From an uncultured Candidatus Saccharibacteria bacterium (GTDB lineage Bacteria > Patescibacteriota > Minisyncoccia > Phycocordibacterales > PALSA-1337), in assembly GCA_964412585.1 (NCBI GenBank), contig CAYPPJ010000001.1, positions 149,334 to 213,333 on the forward strand: 64,000 nt of DNA, in the 5' to 3' direction. The position numbers and the translations under genes were made by a program. This document shows, piece by piece, positions 3,598 through 59,224 of this stretch (positions within the stretch are counted from its first letter, which is position 1; every line of letters begins with the position of its first letter). The notes under the pieces are model-generated. The model did no database searches and had not been told where the DNA came from. It saw only the letters and a list, made by a program, of their open reading frames with translations.

Positions 3598-3716
3598 AAG
3601 TTGATTATACCTTACTGGGGCAATTTTTATATAAAAAAATCCCCCCTGATCCGTGCGGACCAGGAGGTACCCGATTTGTTGAGCGAAATACAGGGCGCAT
3701 CACTGCCCTGGTGACG

Positions 3717-4484
3717 TTAGGCCGTCACCGCTTGAATTTTCTTTCGAAAAACGACGAGGCCAAGCGAAGCAAGGCCGAGCGAGGCAAGGTTTGAGCCGTT
3801 GTCAGGGACGGAAGAGCTCTTCAGCCCGACGTTGATGTTATCAAATTCTTGAACGAAGCTCTCGCCCTTATTGTACGCCTGAGCGAACACTGTGCGGAAT
3901 TGGGAAGTTAAGGGTCCCAGCGTCGTGTCACTGTAAACCGAATTCCCATTCAGAACGTAGTCAACCGAGCTACCGTTGTAGCTGATATCAATGTCGTATT
4001 GCCCCGCAACTGCAGAGCCACCAAGATTGACCCAGCCAATGTCACTGTCCCAGACACGCAGCGTCGAGCCAATATAGCCGAGGATAAAATAATCAGCTCC
4101 GACTTCGGTCCCAACATTCCCAGTGCTGCCCCAAAGGTCCGAACGTTGTCCCCCGCTAATCTGGTCGGACGTCACAAAGAGTTGGCCGGTAAGTTGCCAA
4201 TTGCCGTTAACCAGCGCCTGATGTTGCCGCCCTTGAGTGTTGTAAAACGTACTATTGTACGCCGGCGGACGATTGGCCTGGCTATCCGCGCTGGAGATGG
4301 TAATCTGCAGACGCCCTCCGACAGAATTGAAGCCCGCAGGCTCATACCGATCAGTCACCCAACCAGCAGACGGTGGACCTGTGAAGGTGTCCGTAAACGG
4401 GACGGCAAAGGAGGAATTTGAAGGGTTAATAACCGCCACAGCAAGTGCCATGGCGCCGATAATACCGACGTTAACGTGTTTCAT
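3717..4484 (-). CDS. secreted protein with PEP-CTERM-like (VPDSG-type) C-terminal sorting signal
   Basis: N-terminal signal peptide. The C-terminus is ...SSSVPDNGSNLASLGLASLGLVVFRKK, i.e. a VPDxG motif, a hydrophobic helix and a basic tail. It is GC-rich relative to its neighbours. Confidence 0.6.
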   Translation of the reverse strand: MKHVNVGIIGAMALAVAVINPSNSSFAVPFTDTFTGPPSAGWVTDRYEPAGFNSVGGRLQITISSADSQANRPPAYNSTFYNTQGRQHQALVNGNWQLTGQLFVTSDQISGGQRSDLWGSTGNVGTEVGADYFILGYIGSTLRVWDSDIGWVNLGGSAVAGQYDIDISYNGSSVDYVLNGNSVYSDTTLGPLTSQFRTVFAQAYNKGESFVQEFDNINVGLKSSSVPDNGSNLASLGLASLGLVVFRKKIQAVTA

Positions 4485-4538: not shown

Positions 4539-4567
4539 AATATAGCACGAAGTTATAAAATTGGCAA
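4539..4567 (-). promoter_or_regulatory. sigma70-like promoter (TTGCCA-N17-TATATT) for 3717..4484 gene
   Basis: Hexamers read on the minus strand, 55 nt upstream of the ATG. Confidence 0.35.
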
Positions 4568-4591
4568 GAATAAAGCCGCAATGGAGCGGCT
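4562..4591 (-). terminator. rho-independent terminator after rpoD
   Basis: AGCCGC-aatgga-GCGGCT hairpin followed by TTATTCTT on the minus strand, immediately downstream of the rpoD stop. Confidence 0.45.
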
Positions 4592-7830: not shown

Positions 7831-10524
7831 CTATTGACTCAAAAGTGAGTTTATGACTTGTATAGTTTTTGTATCCACAACACCAGTCCCCTGTGACACA
7901 CCTAACGGAACGAGTAGCTGCACTGGATGCGCCTCTTGAAAACGAATGACTGCAGCACGTGTTGCTGGACCAAAAAAATCTGTTTCATTACCAGAAGATC
8001 CGGGCCCTGAAAGGGCAACAAGAAAATTGTTACGATTCAAGAATTTTTGCAATACAAGTACATCTGGATGGCGAGAGCCTAGTGAAAGAAATGTCGAAAG
8101 TCGAACTTGTTGAATCGCGCCGGCTGGGCTTGTCGAACCTACTGTTGCACCTAAAATTGGCGTACAAATCATGTTAGCAGGACATCCTACAGCAACTACC
8201 GGTGAACGGAGCATATCAGCACGATAACGTGCAAGTGCAGCAGCTGTAATTGGCCCAAAATATCCTGTCGTATGATCAAAATCCATATACCCCTTTCCTG
8301 CAAGATACGTTTGCAATGCCAACACTTCTGAACCCCTCATGCCAACTCCTAATGCTGAATACTGATACGTAAAGCTCGTATTTAGTGATGGAACAATTGT
8401 GATTGGTATGCCTGGTACTGAGGCTGCCTTGAGAGATGTGGCAACATCAGCAGCATATTTCTTGACCGCAGCATCGGTAATAGGTCCAAAGTACCCCGTA
8501 ATACGGTCTGCACTCATGTATCCCTGTGACAGTAAAAATTTTTGAAGTCCCAGAACCGCGTCGTTCCTTGTACCAACCACCAAATGTGCATACGATGCTG
8601 GAATTTGAGGAAGTATTTTTCGAGGTTGAACAGTCGGCATTACTACTGTTGGTATCTGTACCGCTACGACTGGACTTGCCGCAGCCCCAGCACCACCACC
8701 CCCTCCGCCGCCTCCCCCGCCACCACCTCCGCCGCCAGAATTTGAAACTGAGGATGTTACCGCGTAGATAATGCTTGTCTGTGATGTGTTGCCAGCGTCG
8801 TCATAGGCAACGATCATATACCCATAGGTTGTAGCAGCTGCTAATCCCACGTGACTATAGGAAAGATCTGAAGGTGTCGTACTCAACAGATCCGACGGTA
8901 CGCATGATGCACCATTACATCCATACACTCGATATCCTGCGACACCACGTGAGTCAGTCGACGCTTCCCACGAAAGTCGTATATTACTACTTGAAAACGT
9001 ATTTGCTGAAAAGTTTTGAGGAACTGATGGCGCTGTAAGATCAAGTACCGCAACATTTGAGAGTGGAGATGAGTTTCCAGCAGCATCTCGAGAGATCAGA
9101 GCAAAATAATAAGTCTGAGTAAGCGCTGGTAAATTTATATTGTATACCTCAGGACTGCCTGAGACATACGGAACAGGTTGTAGTTGATTTGGCCCGTACC
9201 CTTCCAAAGGATTGGGCATGACCGTTATCAGCTTATCGCTCGAAAAAGTCAGGCTCGTAATTTCGGTTGATGTCGAATATCTGATTTCATATGCAGTTGA
9301 TGTCCCATAACTTCCATTATTGCCAGGTGCCGTCCATACCAGTGTCGTAGTACCTATATCTGAAAGCTGCGTCACTGACAAATCTGCAATTGTCGATGGT
9401 TTGGTGAGATCAACGAGTTCGATCGGAGTACTACTGTATGTCAGCTTGTATATCCCCGCATCTCCTACCGCGTACACTACTCCTGAATCATATGGGTCTG
9501 TCACAACTTTTTTTATTGCCACATCAGATAGATCTTTTTGGATGGGCAACCATTGGGGAATCTGTGGATCAGCATCAAGAATAGCCTCATTCGTCGTACG
9601 ATACACACCGCTTCCATAGACTGCAGCATAGGCGACATTTGAGTCAGTATAATCACTGGCAACAGTACGCACGGATCCTGATGGCAAGCCGGTACTCGAT
9701 GACGCAAAGTGTACACCACTATCATTACTCTTATATATTCCCTTGTCTGTTGCGATCCAGGCCAGGTTGCCAGACGCATGCAATACGCTGACATCATTGG
9801 TTGTAGTACCATTGGCGCTAAAAATGCGTGACCAGTTTTCATATGTACCTGAAGAAGACCTGAGCGCACTCGAGTACACATCATTGCCATTTGTTAGGGC
9901 AAAAATCTCGGCACTACCAAATGCAGTGGTGAGCTTCTTTGCGTATCCCGAAAGTCCAGTATTATCAGCTCTCCAATATGAACCAGTGGTAGTACTTATG
10001 AATACACCACTCGGTGTCGCTGCATATAGTGTGTTAAAACTGCCCTGGGTTGCTTGATATTGATCAATTGTAATGTCCAAAATAGAATTGTCACTCAAAC
10101 CGGTGCTCGTGGCAATCCATACGGGATCACTCAAGGTACTGGCGAAAATCCCGCCATCCGAAGTACCTGCAAATATATATGTCGAAGATGTGGTGGCATA
10201 CCGATCAGTGCCTGAATCATAGATCCATCCTATCGCAAGTGATGTCACATCTACATGCGGACCGAGGCCAGTGTTTACCTGGGTCCAGGATTGGCCACCA
10301 TTGATGCTTTTGAATACCCCGTGATCCGTTGCAAGATACAGAAATGAGCCGATGCCAGCAATTGTATTAAATTGATACCCTGATGCACCTGGTGGAGTGA
10401 TTGTCTCCCACTGATCGGTTGCCGCGCATACTGGCATGGCGGCTATGCACAATGCCCATAGTATGAGCATCGCAATGTAAGGGTTCGGATACCGAAAATA
10501 AGTCATGATGGATAATACAGACAC
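7831..10524 (-). CDS. large secreted surface protein: BNR/Asp-box-like repeats, FN3 domains, Gly15 linker, three C-terminal peptidoglycan-binding (PG_binding_1-like) repeats
   Basis: Signal peptide. Motifs seen in the translation: SINGGQSW, YKSNDSGVHF. FN3-like segments, then a Gly15 run, then three LxxxLxxxGY....G.FGP.T..A...YQ repeats. Confidence 0.7.
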   Translation of the reverse strand: MSVLSIMTYFRYPNPYIAMLILWALCIAAMPVCAATDQWETITPPGASGYQFNTIAGIGSFLYLATDHGVFKSINGGQSWTQVNTGLGPHVDVTSLAIGWIYDSGTDRYATTSSTYIFAGTSDGGIFASTLSDPVWIATSTGLSDNSILDITIDQYQATQGSFNTLYAATPSGVFISTTTGSYWRADNTGLSGYAKKLTTAFGSAEIFALTNGNDVYSSALRSSSGTYENWSRIFSANGTTTNDVSVLHASGNLAWIATDKGIYKSNDSGVHFASSSTGLPSGSVRTVASDYTDSNVAYAAVYGSGVYRTTNEAILDADPQIPQWLPIQKDLSDVAIKKVVTDPYDSGVVYAVGDAGIYKLTYSSTPIELVDLTKPSTIADLSVTQLSDIGTTTLVWTAPGNNGSYGTSTAYEIRYSTSTEITSLTFSSDKLITVMPNPLEGYGPNQLQPVPYVSGSPEVYNINLPALTQTYYFALISRDAAGNSSPLSNVAVLDLTAPSVPQNFSANTFSSSNIRLSWEASTDSRGVAGYRVYGCNGASCVPSDLLSTTPSDLSYSHVGLAAATTYGYMIVAYDDAGNTSQTSIIYAVTSSVSNSGGGGGGGGGGGGGGGAGAAASPVVAVQIPTVVMPTVQPRKILPQIPASYAHLVVGTRNDAVLGLQKFLLSQGYMSADRITGYFGPITDAAVKKYAADVATSLKAASVPGIPITIVPSLNTSFTYQYSALGVGMRGSEVLALQTYLAGKGYMDFDHTTGYFGPITAAALARYRADMLRSPVVAVGCPANMICTPILGATVGSTSPAGAIQQVRLSTFLSLGSRHPDVLVLQKFLNRNNFLVALSGPGSSGNETDFFGPATRAAVIRFQEAHPVQLLVPLGVSQGTGVVDTKTIQVINSLLSQ

Positions 10525-11402: not shown

Positions 11403-12296
11403 ATGAGAAAAATCTGTTTGTCTGCAGGTGCGGCCCTGTGCCTAGCACTCTGCAACTTGTGTACGGACGTGCATGGCGGTGTGCCAACGCGTATTCCCAC
11501 TCGGGATGAACTCCTTGATTGGGCGGCCACTAACACTCCCAGTTCAACAAAAATCGTACTGCAAGAAAGTGCGAATCTGGGAAGTCTCAACACCTGTGGC
11601 ATGTCGAGCAACAATATGTGTTTCAAATCCTTCGCCGACTATCAATCGTTTGTGGCCAGCCAAGGCTTGAGATTGTTCAACTTTCTCGGCTGCATCGGAA
11701 CTGCGCACGAGATACGACTTAAGGTCGTCACCACGTTCAATACCATACATGACGAAGGCGGACTGTTTGGTGTGTCCATGCGATTCATTACCGATGTCAA
11801 TCTCGGTACATGGTCACAAGTCACCCCAAACTCGTTTTATGTCATGCCCACAGTGGTTCAACCGCTTGTGATACCAGTCTCCGGATTGACTGGCGCGACT
11901 ATCAGACACGGCGACAATTCACCCGTCTCTTTGTCGACAACAAGCGATGGCAACCTTGTCTTCAATGACACTCTTTCTTCCTCGAATGGAAGAGTCCGGG
12001 TATCGCTTACTTTTACCAATGGTGAAACAGCGACATACACCCAGAGAGGCCAGCAATTGGTGCCTCCGGAATTGATGTTAATTATCAATCCACCAGACCC
12101 ATATGACCAGCCTTCGCTTACGCTCAACGTGCGAGCGACACTCGGTGCAGACACGATCATTGAGAGCGCGACGAGCCTCGACGGTACTTGGACACCAATC
12201 GGCAGCATTTCTTGGGACGCGGACACGCAAGATTTTTGGCTCTACGTTCCGACCGAGACGAGTACTATGCAGTTATTTCGCGCGCACTCGTATTGA
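11403..12296 (+). CDS. secreted hypothetical protein carrying C-terminal shared 'ESATSL..W...FR' module
   Basis: Signal peptide with a Cys-rich N-terminus. A C-terminal module is shared with four other secreted proteins in this window. Confidence 0.5.
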   Translation: MRKICLSAGAALCLALCNLCTDVHGGVPTRIPTRDELLDWAATNTPSSTKIVLQESANLGSLNTCGMSSNNMCFKSFADYQSFVASQGLRLFNFLGCIGTAHEIRLKVVTTFNTIHDEGGLFGVSMRFITDVNLGTWSQVTPNSFYVMPTVVQPLVIPVSGLTGATIRHGDNSPVSLSTTSDGNLVFNDTLSSSNGRVRVSLTFTNGETATYTQRGQQLVPPELMLIINPPDPYDQPSLTLNVRATLGADTIIESATSLDGTWTPIGSISWDADTQDFWLYVPTETSTMQLFRAHSY

Positions 12297-16843: not shown

Positions 16844-18019
16844 ATGAAAATGAAATCAATCGTTGTAGCAATCCTGGCGTTGTCGCTTTTCAGCGCAGTC
16901 GCCCAAACACCCGTCAACATTACGCTAGCCAAAAAGGCGGCGTATATTGTCAGCTTCCCAGCGGAGGCTGGGGTCGAATACACCATCCAGTCCTCGACGA
17001 ACATGTCGGATTGGATGAACGTCACCTCAATGCAAACGACAGGAGGCACAGTCTCCTACACGGATGTCGTTGACGATCATGGGCAAGGGTTTTACCGCGT
17101 GATAGCTTCGGCGACTACCGGTAGTATCCTTGTGAAACTGGATACGGCGCTTTCGCCGCCAGCTCAGATCGTGCACATATCAACCACCTCAGAAACGGAC
17201 CTGGTTCCCCTGGCGGTGTTTGATGTAAAGTCAGTTGGGAAAAATGGCACGTTAAGCACGATGAATATACAAGTCGCAACCACCGGCACGAATGTGATCA
17301 ACATGTTTACCGACATCAAGATCAAGGCCGGCGGGTCAACATATTCCGCAGACCTAATCGTCGGGAGTATTGCCCACTTTGCGAATTTGGTAATCCCCCT
17401 GCCACAAGATCAATTCCTTCCGATCACTGTGTACGGTCGAGTGGCACGAAATGTCGGCAACATGCTCGAAGGTGCGACTGCACAGGTCTCACTCGTGGCA
17501 TCCGCTGACCTCCACAATCCATATGTCATGGATGCGCAATTCAATACTATGCCGGTCAATAATTCAGTCAGTGTCGGCGCAGTAATGACCTTTGCGTCTC
17601 AAGCTGCTATTACTAGCAACTTGACGACCTCGAGCATTCCGCTCGTGAACGTGTCCAACGTGCTGTCGTACGCCGTAGGCTTCGGATATACACTGACCGC
17701 AGCAGACTCAACTCTGTACGTCAGCAAAAATCCGACTGATGCTGCAACATTCTCAGTTGGAGTCGCATCGGTGCTCGGCGGATGGTCAGGCATGGTGACG
17801 ACACCAAACGTACTTGCTGGTGACACGGTGGATTATTTCGTAGTCCCAGCTGGAAGCAGCCGATCGTTCGTGATCGCTGCCAACCTGAGTCACGTTGGCA
17901 ACGGCATAGGTTCGGCGCAAATCAACGCGCTTAACTTCGGCCTGTCATCAGGAAATCTCACTGGGTACTCCGTCACCTACGGGCTCAGCACCCTCAATGT
18001 GACCCAGGTGTTTCCGTAA
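16844..18019 (+). CDS. secreted hypothetical protein (N-terminal shared 'SSTNMSDW...FYRV' module)
   Basis: Signal peptide (MKMKSIVVAILALSLFSAVAQT). The shared module sits right after the signal peptide. Confidence 0.55.
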   Translation: MKMKSIVVAILALSLFSAVAQTPVNITLAKKAAYIVSFPAEAGVEYTIQSSTNMSDWMNVTSMQTTGGTVSYTDVVDDHGQGFYRVIASATTGSILVKLDTALSPPAQIVHISTTSETDLVPLAVFDVKSVGKNGTLSTMNIQVATTGTNVINMFTDIKIKAGGSTYSADLIVGSIAHFANLVIPLPQDQFLPITVYGRVARNVGNMLEGATAQVSLVASADLHNPYVMDAQFNTMPVNNSVSVGAVMTFASQAAITSNLTTSSIPLVNVSNVLSYAVGFGYTLTAADSTLYVSKNPTDAATFSVGVASVLGGWSGMVTTPNVLAGDTVDYFVVPAGSSRSFVIAANLSHVGNGIGSAQINALNFGLSSGNLTGYSVTYGLSTLNVTQVFP

Positions 18020-29238: not shown

Positions 29239-30330
29239 ATGAAGAAGCATAGCCCTTTGAGCATCGTCATGACCACCCTTCTAGTGGTTGCTTTTGGTTG
29301 GGGGACAACATATCTCATTGCGAGCGGTATCAAGGCACTCGGACCAAAAACTATTCTTGTTGAATCAGTGCCCCAAAAGGCTGCGATGCTGGAGGCCACG
29401 GTCGTCAATCCAACGGTCCCCGAACCAAAAAAATCGATATCTTCGATTACGATTATGATGGGAGGTGACATTATGATGGATCGAAATATTCGTGCGTTGG
29501 GTGAAAAAAATGGCTACGAGACACTCTTTGACGAGCCTGTCGCCACGTTATTCAAACAAGCAGATATCGCGGTGGCAAATCTTGAGGGACCAATCACTTC
29601 CAACCCATCAAAAAATCTTATCAACGGCAAACCAATAGAAGTTCTTCAGTTCACCTTTTCACCAAAATCACGGGCAGCTCTAACGGCTGCTGGATTCGAT
29701 ATTGTCAGTCTCGCAAATAATCATACAGACAACTTTGGCCTACTCGGATTCAAGGAAACTCAGGATTGGCTCACTGATTCGCAACTATCTTGGTTTGGAA
29801 ATCCGTGGAACAGCACCTCATCATCGATTATGCGCGACACGCCAAGTGATGATAAATCCCCTATTACCACTGTCGTAACAAAAAACGGCATTACAGTAGC
29901 CTTTATCGGGTATCATTCATTCCAAAAAGGCGTCGATAAAGTCATGAGTGAAATCAGGCGTGTTTCAGGCCCCCAAGTATTTACCATTGTGATGCCTCAC
30001 TGGGGTGAAGAGTACGTAGCAACTTCTTCGGAAAAAATGAAAGGACTTGCGACCGCATTCATCAACGCAGGAGCAGATGCAGTTATCGGTGCTCATCCCC
30101 ACGTCATCATGAACCAAGATTGGATCGATGGTGTTCCCGTCCTATATTCACTCGGAAATCTGTTGTTTGATCAATATTTCTCACCAGAGGTTTCAAAAGG
30201 TATGATTGCCGAACTTTATATCGTGAAAGATTCTTCAAGTGTTCATCTTGAGAAACTCTCCACTCACATTATTCGTCTTGTCCGCGGACAAGGCACCGTG
30301 CTTGAGGACGGTACGACGAGTATGAGATAA
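29239..30330 (+). CDS. CapA/PgsA-family metallophosphatase-like protein (poly-gamma-glutamate capsule synthesis family)
   Basis: N-terminal TM. Motifs GGDIMMDR, VANLEGPIT, SLANNHTDNFG, MPHWGEEY, GAHPHV. Confidence 0.8.
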   Translation: MKKHSPLSIVMTTLLVVAFGWGTTYLIASGIKALGPKTILVESVPQKAAMLEATVVNPTVPEPKKSISSITIMMGGDIMMDRNIRALGEKNGYETLFDEPVATLFKQADIAVANLEGPITSNPSKNLINGKPIEVLQFTFSPKSRAALTAAGFDIVSLANNHTDNFGLLGFKETQDWLTDSQLSWFGNPWNSTSSSIMRDTPSDDKSPITTVVTKNGITVAFIGYHSFQKGVDKVMSEIRRVSGPQVFTIVMPHWGEEYVATSSEKMKGLATAFINAGADAVIGAHPHVIMNQDWIDGVPVLYSLGNLLFDQYFSPEVSKGMIAELYIVKDSSSVHLEKLSTHIIRLVRGQGTVLEDGTTSMR

Positions 30331-34175: not shown

Positions 34176-35297
34176 TCAGAGGTCGGGAGGTGGTGCTGAC
34201 CACGTCCGACGCGCTTTGAGGCGGAAATACCGTTCCGAATTGACGCTCGGGTAGTCACGGTAGCCCTGACTCCCCAGTTGGAGCGACTCGCCAATGATTT
34301 TGAGCCATGGAGCTCCTGTAAGGTTCTCCGCCGACTCGATGTCGTAGGAGAAGCTATACTGGCCACCGATCATGACGACCCGCGCCATGGTGGGCGTATA
34401 GCGGTATGCAAGCAATGATGGCACTGCAGCAACCGCGAGCTCACTGGCGACCGTGGCGTCATTGCTGACCAGTTCAGCATGTACCCAGGGCACCGGCGTC
34501 GTCGCGAATTGATCCATCACATCAGTGAAGTCACCCGGCTGGTTTCCAGTAATATAAACGCTGGAGCCAAACCGAGTAAAGTAATCGATGTGCACCTGGT
34601 GTGCATATACAGGTGACGGCTGACTGCCGTCGTACACGGTATCATCACCGCCAGCCACCACTTTTCCGAGGGAAGAATTCCACGCACTGTCGAGTACACC
34701 ATTTGGGCCATAATCGACGCCAATATAGGTGAAACTGAACTGAAGTGGAGTGCCGTCCGCCGAATTGGTGCTGACCGAGAAATAACTGGGTGCAATATTG
34801 GTGATGGAAGTGGTGAGCCGAACGAAGAAATCATTCGGGTTACCTTTCCCCGCCACCGAAATGACCCAGCGGTGACCATGTTCGTCACTGGCAACATTGT
34901 TCGTGGGAGCCGGAGCGCCCATAAAACTTTTTGCCAGCGTGACAGTCCCATCAAACCATTGAAGCCCATAATTCGGCCCCCACGTTTGTGGAACGCGGTA
35001 CCATGCGGCCGGCGTTATCATCCGGTCCGTCGGCACATCGCCACCCCACATGCCCTTCACTGTATTGACACGACTTTGCGTCAGATGAGGAGATGAGAGG
35101 CTGCACATCGAGGCGATATAGATCGCACTCTCCCCAAGAGGAGCTCGCGGTGCAGGTTGGAGTTCAAGCCGGATAGGCTTGTTGACCGATTTGGGATAGG
35201 GGACGTTGTCATCCCCTCCGTTCACGACCACCAAGGTGGCCGCGTGAGTCGCCAAGGCGCATAAAAGCGCTAGTGTGACCAGCAGGTTTGTTTTCAT
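34176..35297 (-). CDS. secreted hypothetical protein (C-terminal shared module), GC-rich
   Basis: Start set at MKTNLLVTLALLCALATHA (signal peptide). C-terminus is ...IESAENLTGAPWLKIIG...ERYFRLKA. Confidence 0.55.
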   Translation of the reverse strand: MKTNLLVTLALLCALATHAATLVVVNGGDDNVPYPKSVNKPIRLELQPAPRAPLGESAIYIASMCSLSSPHLTQSRVNTVKGMWGGDVPTDRMITPAAWYRVPQTWGPNYGLQWFDGTVTLAKSFMGAPAPTNNVASDEHGHRWVISVAGKGNPNDFFVRLTTSITNIAPSYFSVSTNSADGTPLQFSFTYIGVDYGPNGVLDSAWNSSLGKVVAGGDDTVYDGSQPSPVYAHQVHIDYFTRFGSSVYITGNQPGDFTDVMDQFATTPVPWVHAELVSNDATVASELAVAAVPSLLAYRYTPTMARVVMIGGQYSFSYDIESAENLTGAPWLKIIGESLQLGSQGYRDYPSVNSERYFRLKARRTWSAPPPDL

Positions 35298-35497
35298 TTG
35301 TAGGTGCTCCACCTCACAGTATACGTATGCGCCCATTCGGGGCGCATCAAGCATGGTGTTCAAGCTCCGTAGACCGAAATTTGTGATGAGGTGGTTCCCT
35401 TGCTTTCTAGCAAAGAATTACCTTCTTGTCAAGGTCCTCTCATAGTGAACTGGGCTATGAACAGGCGCCTTGCAGGACGATTTGGTATAATGATTTC

Positions 35498-36187
35498 ATG
35501 TCCGCAACTGCTCTTCTGTACGCTATTCTTTCAGGTGTCCTCCCCTCTTTTATTTGGCTCTTCTTTTGGCTTCGTGAGGACCGACAACATCCTGAACCAC
35601 GGTCCTTACTCGTAGCATGTTTCTTCGGTGGTATCCTTGCCGTTGGCGCCGCCGCATTCTCAGAACAATACGTTGCTGATATATACAGCGATTCGACTAC
35701 GCGCTATATATTATGGGCAGCAATCGAAGAAATTCTAAAGTTTATCGCCATCGCAGCAATCGGTCTTCGATCATTATCAAATGACGAACCAATAGATGCC
35801 ATGATTTACTGTATCGTTGTCGCCATTGGGTTTGCGGCTCTTGAAAACACTCTCTTTATTATGGACCCCTTGGCTGGTGGAGAGATCGCACGAAGCATTG
35901 TGACTGGTAATATGCGTTTTATGGGCGCAACACTCCTTCACATCGTGAGTTCTGCCACTATCGGATTCTGTATCGGTTATTTCTTTTATCATGGCCGTAT
36001 TGCAAAGATTATTGCTGCCGTGGTCGGTATCGCAATTGCCATTACTATCCATGCCGCCTTCAACCTATCCATTGTGGAAGCAAGTGCAAGTGACACTCTG
36101 AAGACATTTTCCTGGATTTGGGGCGCAGTTGTGATTATGATCATCTTGTTTGAAGAAATAAAGGTTGTGCGCCCCAAACTGTGGTGA
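35498..36187 (+). CDS. PrsW-family intramembrane metalloprotease
   Basis: Multi-TM. Motifs EEILKF (EExxK), GFAALEN, LLHIVSS. Start set at the ATG at 35498. The ORF track starts at 35426. Confidence 0.65.
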   Translation: MSATALLYAILSGVLPSFIWLFFWLREDRQHPEPRSLLVACFFGGILAVGAAAFSEQYVADIYSDSTTRYILWAAIEEILKFIAIAAIGLRSLSNDEPIDAMIYCIVVAIGFAALENTLFIMDPLAGGEIARSIVTGNMRFMGATLLHIVSSATIGFCIGYFFYHGRIAKIIAAVVGIAIAITIHAAFNLSIVEASASDTLKTFSWIWGAVVIMIILFEEIKVVRPKLW

Positions 36188-43958: not shown

Positions 43959-44771
43959 TTAGGGCACCCACAGCTTTTTCATGCGGAAAAATGCCCGTTC
44001 GTGATATTTCTCACCAATAACACCCACCTGTTCTTTGAGGACCTCACTATCACCCGGACTATTGGCGATGCCGACTTCTTCCCAATTTAGCAGATTCGTT
44101 GATGCCTCGACGGAATATGACGTATTAGGTTCCATGAAACCGTTCAGTACCAATCCTTTGCTTGTCGAATTTGGAATGGGTTGCAGGATCAAGCGACTGA
44201 TCTGAGCGAAGTCAGCTGAAACAAGCGGCGCACGAGCAACTACGCCAGTAAATTTCTCACCTGACACATTTGGAACGGCCACGAGTGTACTGTTTACCTG
44301 ATCAACAAGTCTAACCGTGCGACTATCGCCATGCTGATACGTCACCGATATCTCTGATCCGATCTCGAAGCCACCGACGAAGTCGGCGACGACGCGAATC
44401 GTGCGAAATCCATTGGTCGGAATGACAAGATTGGTAATCGTGTCAAAGATGACTCTGCCGTTGTCACAGTCGCAGACGATCGGAGTGCTCCAGACTCGTT
44501 TTGGATCCGTCAACACCACGCCGTTTTCATCAAACAAACGAACGTTGATGACTTGGTGATAGATCCAGGACGGCACAGTGACGCCGAAAGCAATCTGGGT
44601 AAGTTGAAGTTCTTGATCCTCGTCGCCAGTGACAATAAATCGTGCCAACGTCGAGTTGGTCGTGATGCGCACATGGGCAGGAGTGGCTGCCGTTGCCTGG
44701 AGACTACCCGCCCAGACCGAGGCTTGCAATAATGTTGATACGGCAAGTGCGAGAATAACTAACAGTTTCAT
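43959..44771 (-). CDS. secreted hypothetical protein (C-terminal shared module)
   Basis: Signal peptide. C-terminus is YSVEASTNLLNWEEVGIAN...RAFFRMKKL. Confidence 0.5.
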   Translation of the reverse strand: MKLLVILALAVSTLLQASVWAGSLQATAATPAHVRITTNSTLARFIVTGDEDQELQLTQIAFGVTVPSWIYHQVINVRLFDENGVVLTDPKRVWSTPIVCDCDNGRVIFDTITNLVIPTNGFRTIRVVADFVGGFEIGSEISVTYQHGDSRTVRLVDQVNSTLVAVPNVSGEKFTGVVARAPLVSADFAQISRLILQPIPNSTSKGLVLNGFMEPNTSYSVEASTNLLNWEEVGIANSPGDSEVLKEQVGVIGEKYHERAFFRMKKLWVP

Positions 44772-44908
44772 GATGTCGATTCCATTTCTTTTTCTGTGGG
44801 TTTATATTGATTTCAAAAGATTTGTGACAGAAACACAAATCAGTACAAAACGGCCTACAGTATACCACATATATAGTGGTAATGTCAATAGGTTATTAAA
44901 CAGTCTTC

Positions 44909-45823
44909 TTACAACCTTACGTAGAACACATCCTTACCCTCTTTCACATAGAGTGCTCCGGCCCAAATACGATACTCTATTTTTGGGCCAAGAAAAATCG
45001 GGACGGCTGGCTTCCGTGGTCCAGCATCTGTCTCAAGAGCAAAAAGCCCTTTGTGCGTCAGGATAATGGCCACATCCTTGCGTCCTGGGAAAAAATCAAC
45101 AGACAAAACGGTGGTAGCAACTGGAACATGAACCTGTGTTACACAGACATTTTCTTGCTCAATAACAGAACAGAAAAATCGAGGAATGCGAGACATGCTT
45201 CCCTGCCACTCAAACACGACAATATGATTGCGCTCAGTCCACAGGGCTACCGATGAATTGATCCGCGCAGTAGATGTTGAGGTAGCAACAGGGGTTGTTG
45301 AAGCAGGATTGAATAACGCATGAATGTGCTCGTATTGATCCATCGGCACACGTGCAATCAATGCCTCAGTCGAGGTTGAAAGAGTGCTCACACTCGAAGT
45401 TGCTTCCAATTCTGGTAGAACTTTTCGAACGGGAATCGGGTCGGGCAAAATGAGTGCCGACGCAAGTGCAACGTATCGAGGTAGAACAGTAACATCCTTG
45501 TGCCACGGCGTAGTACCAGTCGCACTAATATCGACAGCATGCAACCCAGGGCTCATGCCATCAATAAATAATGTTTCAGAGAAAAAGTTTGGTGTTTCAG
45601 TGCTGTACACTCCGTCGATATATACAGACGAGCCAGGAACCAGTGTATCGAGCACAATCGCACCCGTCGAAGTAACAGAGGTCTGACCCTTGGTATCTGT
45701 GAAGGTCAAACGATATCCGTTCACATATGATACGACGAGCGGTACAAGGATGATGAATGCAACAAATGCCCCAAGGGCAAGGGCACGGCGAGAACGGACC
45801 GACATCGGTCGCATGACTTCCAT
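44909..45823 (-). CDS. membrane-anchored hypothetical protein (PEGA-like domain)
   Basis: N-terminal TM. GAIVLDTLVPGSSVYIDGVYSTETP resembles a PEGA motif. Confidence 0.45.
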   Translation of the reverse strand: MEVMRPMSVRSRRALALGAFVAFIILVPLVVSYVNGYRLTFTDTKGQTSVTSTGAIVLDTLVPGSSVYIDGVYSTETPNFFSETLFIDGMSPGLHAVDISATGTTPWHKDVTVLPRYVALASALILPDPIPVRKVLPELEATSSVSTLSTSTEALIARVPMDQYEHIHALFNPASTTPVATSTSTARINSSVALWTERNHIVVFEWQGSMSRIPRFFCSVIEQENVCVTQVHVPVATTVLSVDFFPGRKDVAIILTHKGLFALETDAGPRKPAVPIFLGPKIEYRIWAGALYVKEGKDVFYVRL

Positions 45824-45865
45824 ATGGAGGCGATTGTAGCACAGAACGACACGCCAAACACGCTC

Positions 45866-47401
45866 TCACGGGCGGTGTTTTGGAGTAACCCAAAATCCCA
45901 GGTATTTACCCACGAACAACCTCGTTTGCGCCTCAAGCGCTGGAATTGCACCAAATATCACTATAGTGAGGGGCACCAAGATCCACTGGATGACCATCCA
46001 CAATGACTGACGCGCAGGTATATGTTTTGGACGTGGTGGCAATAGTGACATGGCCATGTACGCTGACACGATGAGGCCAAACATGGTCACAAACATGATG
46101 TCACGGGTAATAATCGGCAAATTGTATGAAATAACCAACGTCGAAAAATCCCCTCTCCCAATAATAGTTGGCAACCAGCCAAGCAAAAATATCAACAAAG
46201 GGTTGGTTGCCAATGACCAAAAGCCCTCGAGTTGAACCCATGACATTTTGACTTTTTTACCTTTTGGAATTTCTTTTCGTTTCAAGAAATTGAACAGAAT
46301 ATAGGGAACATTTTCAACACCCCATGACCAGCGTCGTTGCTGTAAATATATATTTTTGAGCGTCCCCCAGAATGTTGGAGCGAGATTGGCATCCATTGAA
46401 ACAGGATATGCGATCGGTACGACTTCATAATCACTACCAAAATGCATGTAGCAATTCCAAAAGATGCGCGAGTCCTCTGAGACCATATTTGTCTGCCAAT
46501 AGCCCACGCGACGCAACGTTTCAAACAACACCGCATGCGACGAGAATGTAGCAAGCCGTTCTGGACGCTCTTGTTGAACCATTTGCCAAAAAGTCCCGGA
46601 AAAGGCCACGACGCGCGAGAGGGCTGGCGCATCCCAGATATTGTTGTTATAGAGCGGTACAGGTTGAAATGAAGCGTAGAGTGGTCGAGGGTGATTGAGC
46701 ACGTGCCATGATAAGCATGCGAAATAATCTGGATAGACTACCGTATCAATATCAAAAGCAGAAACAATAACGTGTGTGTATGCAATCCCCTTTTTGTCCA
46801 AGACTTCCGTACGTACCTGTTCGGCCGCATATGAAATGTTAGAACCTTTTCCCGGCATTTCTCCTTCAACATCTGATGGATGAAATGAAACAAAAAAAGT
46901 CCCGAACAGTGAACCATATTCGCGCTGGGCGCGTTCTGCTTTCTCCCGTGCAGATTGACCTGCACGTTCTTCGGCGGCCAACACGACAATGAGACGCTCA
47001 GGAGAAATATGGGCACCCAGAAGTGACTCCAAACTTTTCGCTATCACGCCATAATCTTCTTTATAAAAGGGCAAGATAACAAGGTGATGGAGATGTTCAT
47101 GAGAAAACTGCTTCAATAATTGTCGCCAATCGGTCGCCAACGCTTTCTTGGTACGCCTCCAATTTGTACGCAAATGAATCGAAAGAAAAATCGTTTTGAG
47201 AAACCAATAAATATCAAACGCTATAATAAATATAGCTGCGTATAACGGCACCCAGTACGATGCCGCTATTGCACCGAGAATAGTACCCCATGACAGTATC
47301 GCAGGAATCATTTCAAACAAGCGATATATCTTGCGGTCAGCACCACGAAGCTCGGTTGCCCTACCGATTTTGTAGTGAGTTGAGATGCGTGCGGTTTCCA
47401 T
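45866..47401 (-). CDS. family 2 glycosyltransferase, integral membrane processive synthase type (QxxRW)
   Basis: DxD-type region and QQRRWSWG. Multiple TM helices. Start set at the ATG at 47401 to avoid overrunning tRNA-Thr. Confidence 0.75.
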   Translation of the reverse strand: METARISTHYKIGRATELRGADRKIYRLFEMIPAILSWGTILGAIAASYWVPLYAAIFIIAFDIYWFLKTIFLSIHLRTNWRRTKKALATDWRQLLKQFSHEHLHHLVILPFYKEDYGVIAKSLESLLGAHISPERLIVVLAAEERAGQSAREKAERAQREYGSLFGTFFVSFHPSDVEGEMPGKGSNISYAAEQVRTEVLDKKGIAYTHVIVSAFDIDTVVYPDYFACLSWHVLNHPRPLYASFQPVPLYNNNIWDAPALSRVVAFSGTFWQMVQQERPERLATFSSHAVLFETLRRVGYWQTNMVSEDSRIFWNCYMHFGSDYEVVPIAYPVSMDANLAPTFWGTLKNIYLQQRRWSWGVENVPYILFNFLKRKEIPKGKKVKMSWVQLEGFWSLATNPLLIFLLGWLPTIIGRGDFSTLVISYNLPIITRDIMFVTMFGLIVSAYMAMSLLPPRPKHIPARQSLWMVIQWILVPLTIVIFGAIPALEAQTRLFVGKYLGFWVTPKHRP

Positions 47402-47425
47402 AGTGTTCGCTGTGACGCGTCGCGG

Positions 47426-47498
47426 AGCCACCTCCCAGGCTTGAACTGGGGACCTTCGCTTTACAAAAGCGTTGCTCTACCAACTGAGCTAAGGTGGC
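47426..47498 (-). tRNA. tRNA-Thr (TGT), CCA not encoded
   Basis: Acceptor GCCACCT/AGGTGGC, D arm GCTC-AGTTGGTA-GAGC, anticodon loop TTTGTAA, T arm CCCAG-TTCAAGC-CTGGG. 73 nt. Confidence 0.8.
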
Positions 47499-50763: not shown

Positions 50764-51393
50764 TTATGACTTCTTTTCAACCTTTGCTGCCTTGGGAGCT
50801 TTTTCCTCCTTTTGTTCAGCGGTTGCCTTCTCTTTTTTCACTGGCTTTGCTTCTTTCTTTTCCTTTACTACCTTCTCCTTCTTTTCAACTGGAGCAGCCT
50901 TGTCGCTGTCATGATATGGACCCTTGTTCTTTGGGACAGCGCGTGAAGCGAGAGCTATGATGGATCCACCTGCTTTCTCAATCTTTTCTTTTGCTGAACC
51001 TGAAATAGCACATCCTGATACTTTGAATGCCTTGGTAACATCACCGTCACCAAGAATCTTTATAAATGGAATAGTGCCTGAAATCGTCGAAACAATACCC
51101 TTTTCAATAAGAGTCGTCGGGGTAACTGCTTCGTTTGCTGAAAAATGAGCCTCGAGTGCAGCGGTGTTGATGACAACTGATACATCACTGACTGGCTTGT
51201 TCTGGTTGACGCCACGGCCACGCAACTTTGGGAGCTTCTTGATGATATCTCTCCACTCTGGACGGCGCTTGTTACCGGCGCGAGCTGACTGACCCTTGCC
51301 TCCACGACCAGAAGTCTTGCCACGCTTGCCACCACGCGCAACGATCATACGCTTCGTGTTTGGGACATTTCGTTGTACTTGATGGAATTGCAT
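50764..51393 (-). CDS. rplO: 50S ribosomal protein L15 with Lys-rich C-terminal extension
   Basis: GGKRGKTSGRGGKGQ...PKLRGRG. C-terminal KEKK repeats. Confidence 0.85.
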   Translation of the reverse strand: MQFHQVQRNVPNTKRMIVARGGKRGKTSGRGGKGQSARAGNKRRPEWRDIIKKLPKLRGRGVNQNKPVSDVSVVINTAALEAHFSANEAVTPTTLIEKGIVSTISGTIPFIKILGDGDVTKAFKVSGCAISGSAKEKIEKAGGSIIALASRAVPKNKGPYHDSDKAAPVEKKEKVVKEKKEAKPVKKEKATAEQKEEKAPKAAKVEKKS

Positions 51394-51416
51394 AATAGTA
51401 AATTAAAATATTCGTA

Positions 51417-52121
51417 TTATTTCTTTGCGACCAATGAGGCGCGGCTGACTTTGCTGAGCTTCTTCAATGCCTCGATAGCTACCTTCGCATTGTTGAGACG
51501 GTTCTTGCTGCCTGAGAGGAACTTTGCACAGACGTCCTTGATACCTGCAAGCTCAATAACTGCACGTGCTGAGCTGCCAGCGACAATACCGCGTCCCCGA
51601 GCGGGGAAAATCATCACGCGTGCACTCGCATACTTTGCTTCGACGGCGTGCGGAATAGTCATCTGCGCCGACAAAGGAACTTTGATGAGGTTCTTCTTGG
51701 CGTCTCGGGTAGCCTTTTCGACTGCTGAAGCAGTATCAATACTCTTGCCCAAGCCGACTCCAACACGACCCTTGTGATCACCAGCAACGACGGCAACACT
51801 GAAGTTCATACGGCGACCTCCTGAGGTCACACGGGTAACGCGGCGAATATCGATGATCTTGCTGTCAAACTCCGGTTTGACACGCTCACGAGGCTCACCA
51901 CGATTGCCACCGCGCGGACCACCGCGGCCTTGAGGACCACTCGATCCGCCACGACGTGCAGTGTCACCACGCATCTTTCGTCCTGGAGTAATCTTGTTAG
52001 CAACTGCTGGTACACCTTCGACCGCAGTCTCAGGAGCAGCAACAAGAGAAGCATCGATACCCGTTGAAGGAATCTTTACTTCTGCTACATCTGGAGTTGT
52101 TTTGATATCTTTGGCTGTCAT
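51417..52121 (-). CDS. rpsE: 30S ribosomal protein S5 (N-terminal extension)
   Basis: IIDIRRVTRVTSGGRRMNFSVAVVAGDHKGRVGVGLGKS. Confidence 0.85.
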   Translation of the reverse strand: MTAKDIKTTPDVAEVKIPSTGIDASLVAAPETAVEGVPAVANKITPGRKMRGDTARRGGSSGPQGRGGPRGGNRGEPRERVKPEFDSKIIDIRRVTRVTSGGRRMNFSVAVVAGDHKGRVGVGLGKSIDTASAVEKATRDAKKNLIKVPLSAQMTIPHAVEAKYASARVMIFPARGRGIVAGSSARAVIELAGIKDVCAKFLSGSKNRLNNAKVAIEALKKLSKVSRASLVAKK

Positions 52122-57976: not shown

Positions 57977-59224
57977 ATGAAAAGAATGATCATCGTGGTA
58001 GCACTCATGTTGAGTGTTACCTCCCAAGCAGCCCAGTTGTACCAGCTCGTCGTGCTTGACGACGGCACCAACGAAAGCTGCGCCTACGGCGTAAACAACT
58101 TCGGTTTCAGCGTCGGCTACAAGAAAGTGGCTGGCGTAATGAAGCCCTGTTTGTGGACACCAGCACGTGGGTACCTGGAACTACCGAGAGCCGTGCAGGC
58201 AACAGATCCGCACGGAATTGCTTACGCAATCAATGACAAGTTCAGTGTCGTCGGTACGTACGGTGCCACCAATGTCTCATCCCACCGAATCGACGTGGGA
58301 GCAGTCGTTGGTTGGAATTGGGATGGAGAGATGGGTCAGTTCAGCACCAAAGCTCTTGCCGACGGAATGATTGGCAACTCCCGAGACATCAATTCCAACG
58401 GAGATGCCGCCTGCACAAGGTACGGATACGCGTGGTGTGCGTGTATTGATAACATGTACACCGATGCGGTCCAGTATTCGTGTGCGTTCTCTGGCTCTGC
58501 GTGCTACGGCATCAATGAGCAAGGAAATGCTGTTGGACAGCGGTATTCGTACTACGCCAATGCAAACGTTCCGATTTACTACCGGAAAAATTCCGATGGA
58601 TCCTATGCATCAACCTCGAGTGACGGAATGTTTCTAGACATAGGCAACAGCGCCTGCTATGACATCAACTCGAATAACGTTGCTGTAGGCTCATCGGATC
58701 AGGCTGGCTTCTATTGGGAACCGGACAAATACTCATTGAACATGTTCCCCATTTCTACGCGTTGTTACTCCATAAATAACGCCAGCACGATCGTCGGTAG
58801 TAGCAATGGAGTTGCTTGTATGTGGGAAAAAGGGACAAACGGCTCGTACAAGTGCACCGACTTGAACAAGTTGGCGACGAGTACTATACCAGGAATCGTG
58901 ATGCGGAAGGCGTTCCGGATCAGTGACGCTGGCCAAATCGTCGGCCAGTGCGTAAACACAAACACGGGCGTTCAAAGCGCCTTCATGCTGACGCCCGCCG
59001 TACGTGCACCACGATGCCTCAAGAAGGCCCCGAACAACCAGCTCGAATTCAATTGGCTGGTAACCGAAGGACACACTTATGCGTTTCGTTTCAGCGAAGA
59101 CCTCAAGTCGTGGGTGTCCTATCCCGACTTGTACTACGCCGACACGAGCACAGATGTAAGTGTCTTTTTCTCCATCGATGACATGCCTAAAGCGTTCATC
59201 GACATCGTGGATACGACCCCGTAA
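57977..59224 (+). CDS. secreted HAF-family extracellular repeat protein
   Basis: Signal peptide, then about 7 repeats of the A.GIN..G..VG type (YGVNNFGFSVGY, AYAINDKFSVVGTY, CYGINEQGNAVGQRY, CYDINSNNVAVGSS, CYSINNASTIVGSS, AFRISDAGQIVGQ). Confidence 0.65.
   Translation: MKRMIIVVALMLSVTSQAAQLYQLVVLDDGTNESCAYGVNNFGFSVGYKKVAGVMKPCLWTPARGYLELPRAVQATDPHGIAYAINDKFSVVGTYGATNVSSHRIDVGAVVGWNWDGEMGQFSTKALADGMIGNSRDINSNGDAACTRYGYAWCACIDNMYTDAVQYSCAFSGSACYGINEQGNAVGQRYSYYANANVPIYYRKNSDGSYASTSSDGMFLDIGNSACYDINSNNVAVGSSDQAGFYWEPDKYSLNMFPISTRCYSINNASTIVGSSNGVACMWEKGTNGSYKCTDLNKLATSTIPGIVMRKAFRISDAGQIVGQCVNTNTGVQSAFMLTPAVRAPRCLKKAPNNQLEFNWLVTEGHTYAFRFSEDLKSWVSYPDLYYADTSTDVSVFFSIDDMPKAFIDIVDTTP

Follow-up and report, generated by a model that had tools for sequence, protein, structure and literature searches.

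Tripartite C-terminal sorting signals, in which a short motif, a hydrophobic helix and a basic cluster lie at the extreme C-terminus of a protein with an N-terminal signal peptide, are known from several systems. The VPDSG-CTERM/XrtC system (TIGR03778, TIGR04151, PF18205), with its V-P-D-[S/G]-G signature, was reportedly described in 2012 as specific to certain Verrucomicrobia. PEP-CTERM proteins of the exosortase A-B system (EpsH; TIGR02595, PF07589) are typically encoded by monocistronic genes (Haft et al, 2006; PMC1569441). The exosortase homolog ArtA of Haloferax works in single-membrane cells on PGF-CTERM signals, removing the helix and attaching a lipid (bioRxiv 10.1101/2023.06.07.544157). 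Here, we analyze a 64,000-nucleotide stretch of DNA (“the window”) from an uncultured Candidatus Saccharibacteria bacterium (contig CAYPPJ010000001.1, positions 149,334 to 213,333), in which the gene at 3717-4484 encodes a 255-residue secreted protein ending in a tail of this kind. Judged by its sequence, this focal tail is a divergent PEP-CTERM-class signal, closest to the VPDSG-CTERM flavor, in a monoderm phylum. By analogy with the systems above, its dependence on an exosortase is plausible.

The focal protein contains each part of a generic tripartite signal: motif, helix and basic cluster at the extreme C-terminus, and a signal peptide at the N-terminus. The C-terminus reads in full ...GLKSSS-VPDNG-SNLASLGLASLGLVVF-RKK-IQAVTA. 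The transmembrane (TM) segment has a best-window mean Kyte-Doolittle hydropathy above 2, and an AlphaFold2 (AF2) model shows a helix at residues 230-254, preceded by a stretch in which the predicted local distance difference test (pLDDT) score falls (residues 221-230), to below 50 at residues 226-229. Read by eye, the N-terminus (MKHVNVGIIGAMALAVAVINPSNSSFA|VPF) is of the Sec signal peptide type and has no lipobox cysteine; AF2 models residues 4-17 of this region as helical, with low pLDDT. A first-pass annotation of the window had located the tail correctly, with V226 encoded at positions 3807-3809 and the stop codon at 3717-3719, and had recognized the VPDxG motif, TM helix and basic cluster. 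It had ended the protein at RKK, which is wrong: IQAVTA follows, and a “..VTA” ending is common to the four closest orthologs. The exact 255-residue protein is present on 22 public contigs, among them a 216,994-bp NCBI contig.

We compared the tail with each described system. Like VPDSG-CTERM proteins, the focal protein has a signal peptide and carries at its very C-terminus a V-P-D-x-G motif followed by a TM helix and basic cluster, and VPDSG-CTERM is the only curated model that the focal tail touches, as well as the best or only match of its closest orthologs. The tail differs in scoring below the cutoff of that model, in carrying N at position 4 of the motif where the signature has S or G (V, P, D and G are present), and in extending six residues past the basic cluster; moreover, the host belongs to the monoderm Patescibacteria, and no XrtC was found in the ~79 kb searched. 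The PEP-CTERM system shares the tripartite tail, the signal peptide and apparently the single-gene unit, and most members of the passenger family, defined by the domain between signal peptide and tail, end in canonical VPEP tails. In contrast, the focal tail has no Pro-Glu-Pro motif and no match to TIGR02595 or PF07589, and its host would, as a member of a monoderm phylum, have no outer membrane and shows, in the sequence searched, neither an exosortase nor a classical exopolysaccharide (EPS) locus. One relative, at the locus designated L008, has two adjacent instances of the tail. PGF-CTERM/ArtA, with an exosortase-family enzyme, a tripartite signal and a single membrane, offers the best functional analogy for a monoderm bacterium of the Candidate Phyla Radiation (CPR), but its motif is PGF, its host is archaeal and its enzyme has been identified. 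Finally, the LPXTG/sortase system shares the tripartite design and monoderm hosts, but across the CPR orthologs position 3 of the motif is acidic and position 4 varies, where LPXTG has an invariant Thr, no sortase was found in the window, and TIGR01167 (LPXTG) does not match the focal protein. Overall, the focal tail lies outside the described range of VPDSG-CTERM and PEP-CTERM systems; sorting by PEP-CTERM and exosortase is known from descriptions of outer-membrane bacteria that have EPS loci.

The ancestry of the tail is clearest from its relatives. A search of 5.8 billion proteins identified 36, mostly 250-290 residues long, with a precomputed match to PF07589 (PEP-CTERM) or PF18205 recorded on eight. 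In an alignment of 29 family members, the focal tail matches VPEP and VPDxG tails column for column: P227 is invariant (29/29), and nearly all members have a basic cluster at the equivalent position. TIGR03778 (VPDSG_CTERM) is matched by 11 of the 29 members and TIGR02595 (PEP_CTERM) likewise by 11, and many members also match named PEP-CTERM protein families. Because the focal tail aligns with the tails of relatives that pass curated models, the likeness goes beyond chance and indicates that the tail is evolutionarily homologous to PEP-CTERM/VPDSG-CTERM signals.

Across the wider family, an exhaustive profile search returned 1098 cluster representatives; among the best 150 of these, 72 of the 95 short proteins (<350 residues) end in an xPEP motif, a TM segment and a basic cluster. 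Contig scans with the passenger family in genome and metagenome collections gave 119 loci, and the tails across these ~120 loci are of VPEP type in 61 cases, VPxP in 20 (some of them VPLP-type) and VP[DE]xG in 16. Judged by these tails, the passenger family consists mostly of exosortase-type substrates. VPLP-type tails, of which L020 and L115 carry examples, occur in Gammaproteobacteria-labelled loci, and a PEPxxWA-type tail is found on L127 and on a contig binned as Patescibacteria (L054). In a Schleiferiaceae metagenome-assembled genome (MAG) of the Bacteroidota (L055), the same passenger carries what appears by eye to be a tail resembling the C-terminal domain of type IX secretion system (T9SS) substrates, and the passenger on an unlabelled metagenome contig (L114) ends in the same T9SS-like way, again by eye. 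The sorting tail thus appears to have been swapped to fit the sorting machinery of the host, which would argue for a functional tail in every host that keeps it. A family member with a canonical PEP-CTERM tail (TIGR02595, 18.4 bits; cutoff 16) also occurs on a contig binned as Candidatus Moraniibacteriota (L030:14039-19633), where a SipW-type signal peptidase and a sortase, both monoderm-type sorting genes, lie ~8 kb downstream.

We found the focal gene at a conserved position in other CPR genomes. Contig L008 (CAVYBN01, a GTDB representative labelled “Candidatus Parcubacteria bacterium”) matches the window in gene order, DnaG-RpoD-ortholog-helicase, with identities of 62% for DnaG, 82-95% for RpoD, 39% for the family member and 65% for the UvrD/PD-(D/E)XK helicase. 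The ortholog also lies directly upstream of the same helicase in L056 and L058 (both labelled Candidatus Saccharibacteria), L064 (groundwater), and L063 and L065 (unlabelled), wherever the downstream flank is present. In addition, the S5 and L15 genes of the window (50764-52121, minus strand) are separated by 23 nt, and the L30 gene is missing from the gap, as would fit a CPR origin; the absence of L30 is common in CPR genomes, as are diversity-generating retroelements. Synteny with CPR MAGs and the absent L30 gene indicate that the host is a member of the Patescibacteria, bearing out the reduced genome assumed in the first-pass annotation. Because the position of the gene is conserved across CPR contigs, we conclude from these comparisons that it is vertically inherited in a CPR clade and is not a binning contaminant.

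Ten syntenic CPR orthologs with 39-86% identity allowed us to compare constraint across the protein. In the motif, V is present in 9/10, P in 10/10, D or E in 10/10 and G in 10/10 orthologs, with N, G, A or Q at position 4. Averaged over alignment columns, conservation reaches 0.80 in the motif and 0.74 in the folded domain, but just 0.46 in the TM segment and 0.45 in the signal peptide. The VP[DE]xG motif is under constraint: it is conserved to the same degree as the folded core, whereas the sequence of the helix drifts. For the closest orthologs, VPDSG_CTERM is the best or only NCBIfam match and aligns over the whole model with 13.5-21.3 bits (cutoff 22), and one ortholog (P0010) passes the cutoff at 27.2 bits. 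On L008, a second, unrelated small secreted open reading frame (ORF; L008:8900-9801), broken by frameshifts in the assembly, lies directly upstream of the ortholog. This neighbor ends in ...TPVPDGGSTLALAGISLLGLAALRRRFGV, with a VPDGG tail that matches TIGR03778 at 37.7 bits (cutoff 22), a textbook instance of the signal. It has no counterpart in the window, where the gap from rpoD to the focal gene is just 142 bp. Since the L008 ortholog and the adjacent 37.7-bit neighbor stand side by side, at least one genome of this CPR clade is predicted to encode two signal-bearing proteins, one of them textbook.

Given these results, we consider it most likely, at about even odds, that the focal gene encodes a Sec-exported CPR surface protein whose tail is processed by an exosortase-family enzyme encoded elsewhere. 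In this model, the signal peptide would carry the protein across the single membrane, and the C-terminal helix would hold it there, with RKK in the cytoplasm and VPDNG at the outer face of the membrane, as suggested by the architecture and the AF2 model. By analogy, an XrtC-like membrane cysteine transpeptidase of the exosortase family would recognize VP[DE]xG, remove the helix and tail, and transfer the passenger to a surface acceptor. In a single-membrane cell, the model for such a step would be the action of archaeosortase A on PGF-CTERM proteins.

Several lines of evidence weigh against this proposal. By HMM (hidden Markov model) scores alone, the focal tail is not significant: Pfam PF18205 (VPDSG-CTERM) aligns over its full length (1-26/26) at residues 225-250 but reaches only 12.8 bits, below the cutoff of 25 (E=0.11), and an NCBIfam search of the focal protein returns no match, even at E<=10. 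The first-pass annotation had read the tail as having PEP-CTERM/VPDSG substrate architecture and had proposed to check it with both models; the tripartite form and the homology to curated-positive tails stand, as does a sub-cutoff match to PF18205, whereas curated membership fails for both tail models. A scan by regular expression and hydropathy of the 586 stop-to-stop ORFs of at least 50 residues found no second tail of the focal type in the window, and there is none in the ~15-kb flanks. This genome therefore shows one such tail in ~79 kb (window plus flanks), compared to a median of eight copies per genome in the PEP-CTERM bacteria described in 2006, all of which have an outer membrane, EPS genes and an EpsH homolog (PMC1569441). 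Patescibacteria, on the other hand, are described as monoderm (PMC11665869), and the literature we searched contains no link between exosortases or PEP-CTERM proteins and CPR bacteria.

The search for a processing enzyme adds to these counterarguments. Pfam and NCBIfam searches of all multi-TM ORFs revealed no exosortase in the window; these ORFs are assigned elsewhere, as two MFS transporters, PrsW, SecY, MscL, an RDD protein and a 521-residue PgaC/IcaA-like protein. A genuine exosortase at a Verrucomicrobiales locus (L052; TIGR02602, E 6.5e-27), used as a seed, retrieved 72 homologs, all of them close Verrucomicrobial proteins, through a word-index prefilter that cannot reach remote homologs. 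A local exosortase HMM built from 71 homologs, which covers a single Verrucomicrobial subfamily, so that remote or minimal exosortases could escape it, identified only the L052 gene among all ORFs of at least 80 residues in the window and 130 loci. In the precomputed Pfam annotation of the ~15-kb flanks and related CPR contigs (~157 kb together) there is neither PF09721 nor a sortase, and further CPR contigs, located by way of homologs of the HAF-like protein described below, showed no sorting enzyme. Gene neighborhood is uninformative here, as an exosortase lies within 10 kb of the passenger gene at just 1 of 119 loci (L052). The first-pass statement that the window holds no exosortase is thus confirmed by Pfam, NCBIfam and the local HMM, as far as curated models tell. 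We rejected an exosortase hidden in the window, since the multi-TM ORFs are all assigned and the local HMM found nothing in it, and likewise a sortase, since no window protein contains a TLxTC motif.

These negative results would fit a relic signal, in which the tail descended from a PEP-CTERM/VPDSG signal, the enzyme was lost, and the helix now tethers the jelly-roll domain, uncleaved, to the cytoplasmic membrane. Such an account accommodates the negative searches for exosortases and sortases in the window, its flanks and ~157 kb of CPR-clade sequence, along with the solitary tail in ~79 kb of this genome; it also draws on the decay of the focal tail and most CPR ortholog tails below curated thresholds. 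A monoderm cell, moreover, would display a C-terminally anchored protein without any further step. A plain anchor needs no VP[DE]xG, however, yet across the orthologs the motif is conserved like the folded core while the helix drifts, and the L008 neighbor keeps a textbook VPDSG-CTERM tail. The passenger in other phyla changes its tail with the host machinery, which likewise argues against functionless retention. On balance, we consider a relic rather unlikely.

Quite improbable, in our judgment, is a signal read by another type of enzyme, either a sortase, given the resemblance of VPDxG to LPXTG, or an intramembrane protease of the PrsW/CPBP glutamic type or the rhomboid type. The tripartite design is common to LPXTG signals, 2 of the 29 family members show faint LPXTG_anchor matches, and on the contig binned as Candidatus Moraniibacteriota (L030), noted above, a sortase and a SipW-type signal peptidase accompany a family member. 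Unlike LPXTG, with its essential Thr, the CPR motif is always acidic at position 3 and variable at position 4 (N/G/A/Q), and neither a TLxTC motif in the window nor an LPXTG-type tail in the ~157 kb of CPR-clade sequence was found. CPBP-type proteases, as in the case of the myxosortases, have been inferred to act on other tripartite signals (bioRxiv 10.1101/2023.06.07.544157), but known CPBP-processed signals have an invariant Cys that is absent from the focal tail. The window does encode a PrsW-family glutamic-type intramembrane protease (35426-36187, plus strand; Pfam E 1e-24); its gene is 31 kb away and unlinked, nothing ties it to the tail, and other reasons account for the wide distribution of its family. 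We give similarly little weight to the possibility that Patescibacteria run a PEP-CTERM-class sorting of their own with a VP[DE]xG signal, processed by a reduced or divergent exosortase or by an unrelated membrane protease; were the latter true, this would be the first signal of the PEP-CTERM class to do without an exosortase. Last, a C-terminal TM helix following VPDNG might merely resemble a sorting signal and have no PEP-CTERM ancestry. The sole direct model match, at E=0.11 and below cutoff, and the empty NCBIfam search would suit such a coincidence, but the column-for-column alignment with curated-positive tails on the same passenger, with P227 invariant, effectively refutes it and leaves it hardly credible.

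The passenger domain shares a beta-jelly-roll fold with GH16, PL7 and ConA-like lectin/glucanase proteins, with sequence identities of only 7-16%. A Pfam search of the focal protein gave no GH16 match and no family covering the passenger. The GH16 catalytic motif (ExDxxE or ExDxE) is absent from the focal sequence, as is the invariant His/Tyr pair of PL7 from the passenger, and we therefore rejected an enzymatic activity. The invariant residues of the passenger family (W42, D45, R46, P49, F80, Y81, Q84, G85, W118 and Y132) include no Glu, and mark it as a family separate from those sharing its fold and having no Pfam model of its own. With neither a GH16 motif nor an invariant Glu, the passenger is more likely to bind glycans or act as an adhesin than to catalyze hydrolysis, as far as sequence can indicate.

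CPR/Patescibacteria spend their lives attached to other cells, a habit thought to be mediated by proteins at their surface. To our knowledge, how proteins are fixed to the surface in CPR bacteria has been little studied. A VP[DE]xG-tailed, lectin-like protein, together with the textbook neighbor on L008, suggests that this sorting class reaches monoderm ultrasmall bacteria. Finding the cognate enzyme would widen the range of the exosortase/archaeosortase superfamily and open a way into the study of surface display in CPR bacteria; should the enzyme be truly absent, the signal would be either co-opted by another enzyme or a relic.

The coordinates of the focal gene and its parts are collected in Table 1. 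Because a promoter-like site and terminator-like hairpins on both sides frame the gene, the sequence suggests a single-gene transcription unit.

Table 1. Features of the focal gene and its flanks, in window coordinates.
Feature	Coordinates	Strand	Basis
Whole gene, 255-aa secreted protein with C-terminal tripartite tail	3717..4484	-	ORF list and sequence
Signal peptide, residues 1-27 (MKH + hydrophobic core + SFA|VP)	4404..4484	-	Sequence reading; cleavage site inferred
Passenger domain, residues 28-222, beta-jelly-roll of ConA-like lectin/glucanase fold	3819..4403	-	
Ser-rich linker SSS, residues 223-225	3810..3818	-	Sequence reading
Signature motif VPDNG, residues 226-230	3795..3809	-	Family conservation
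Hydrophobic transmembrane segment SNLASLGLASLGLVVF, 16 residues, 231-246	3747..3794	-	Hydropathy, AF2
Basic cluster RKK, residues 247-249	3738..3746	-	Sequence reading
C-terminal extension IQAVTA, residues 250-255	3720..3737	-	Sequence reading
Promoter-like site TTGCCA-17-TATATT, extended -10 TG	4539..4567	-	Consensus scan, 10/12 matches; pattern match only
Terminator-like hairpin, 11-bp stem then T-run, downstream of stop	3642..3667	-	Consensus scan
Terminator-like hairpin after rpoD	4574..4591		Consensus scan

Elsewhere in the window, the first-pass annotation had cited the protein encoded at 57977-59224 as a HAF-repeat protein of the kind that accompanies PEP-CTERM systems. This protein contains repeated A.gIN..G.vvG-like units and matches Pfam DUF3466 below threshold (E 1e-3, 18 bits; cutoff 25), with no NCBIfam match. 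It ends in ...FIDIVDTTP, with neither a TM segment nor a sorting tail, and none of its 13 homologs carries PF07589; a single remote match (E 2e-7) bears the name “probable HAF family extracellular repeat protein”. The support from this protein accordingly amounts to almost nothing.

The same annotation had reported no EPS locus in the window. There is indeed no classical one, but genes related to surface polymers are present. The ORF at 45866-47431 encodes the 521-residue multi-TM protein, which has no Pfam match and a weak likeness to PgaC/IcaA poly-GlcNAc synthases (TIGR03937, E 1e-5). A PEGA-domain membrane protein (44909-45823) adjoins it, a secreted protein is encoded at 43959-44771, and this minus-strand region (43959-47431) is possibly a surface-polymer module, judging by its gene content. 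A CapA-like protein (29239-30330, plus strand) with a PGA_cap capsule-synthesis domain (E 1.5e-47) is also encoded in this reduced CPR genome.

Several secreted proteins of the window have in common a module of ~45 residues (Y.[IV]..S..L..W ... F[FY]R[VLM]), in most cases located C-terminally. It is found in the products of 16844-18019 (residues 46-86) and 43959-44771 (residues 219-264) and, in looser form, in those of 34176-35363, 11403-12296 and 57977-59224; BLASTP between the carrier proteins detects no similarity. The module may serve these proteins as a shared domain for surface attachment or packing.

Past the end of the window, contig L060 carries a diversity-generating retroelement ~7-8 kb away (L060:1582-2984), comprising bAvd (PF22296) and a reverse transcriptase (RVT_1) and adjoining a 198-residue ORF and a PG_binding/PKD surface protein. 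The same contig encodes a histidine kinase (HisKA and HATPase_c; L060:7653-8537) within the S10 ribosomal-protein operon, where its gene separates L2 from S19 and runs in the opposite direction. Finally, the region upstream of dnaG is strain-variable: the gene for an 897-residue PG_binding/fn3 surface protein in the window (7831-10524) is replaced in a Joint Genome Institute (JGI) contig (L004:1-3060) by other ORFs, one of them with a weak terminase-like match.

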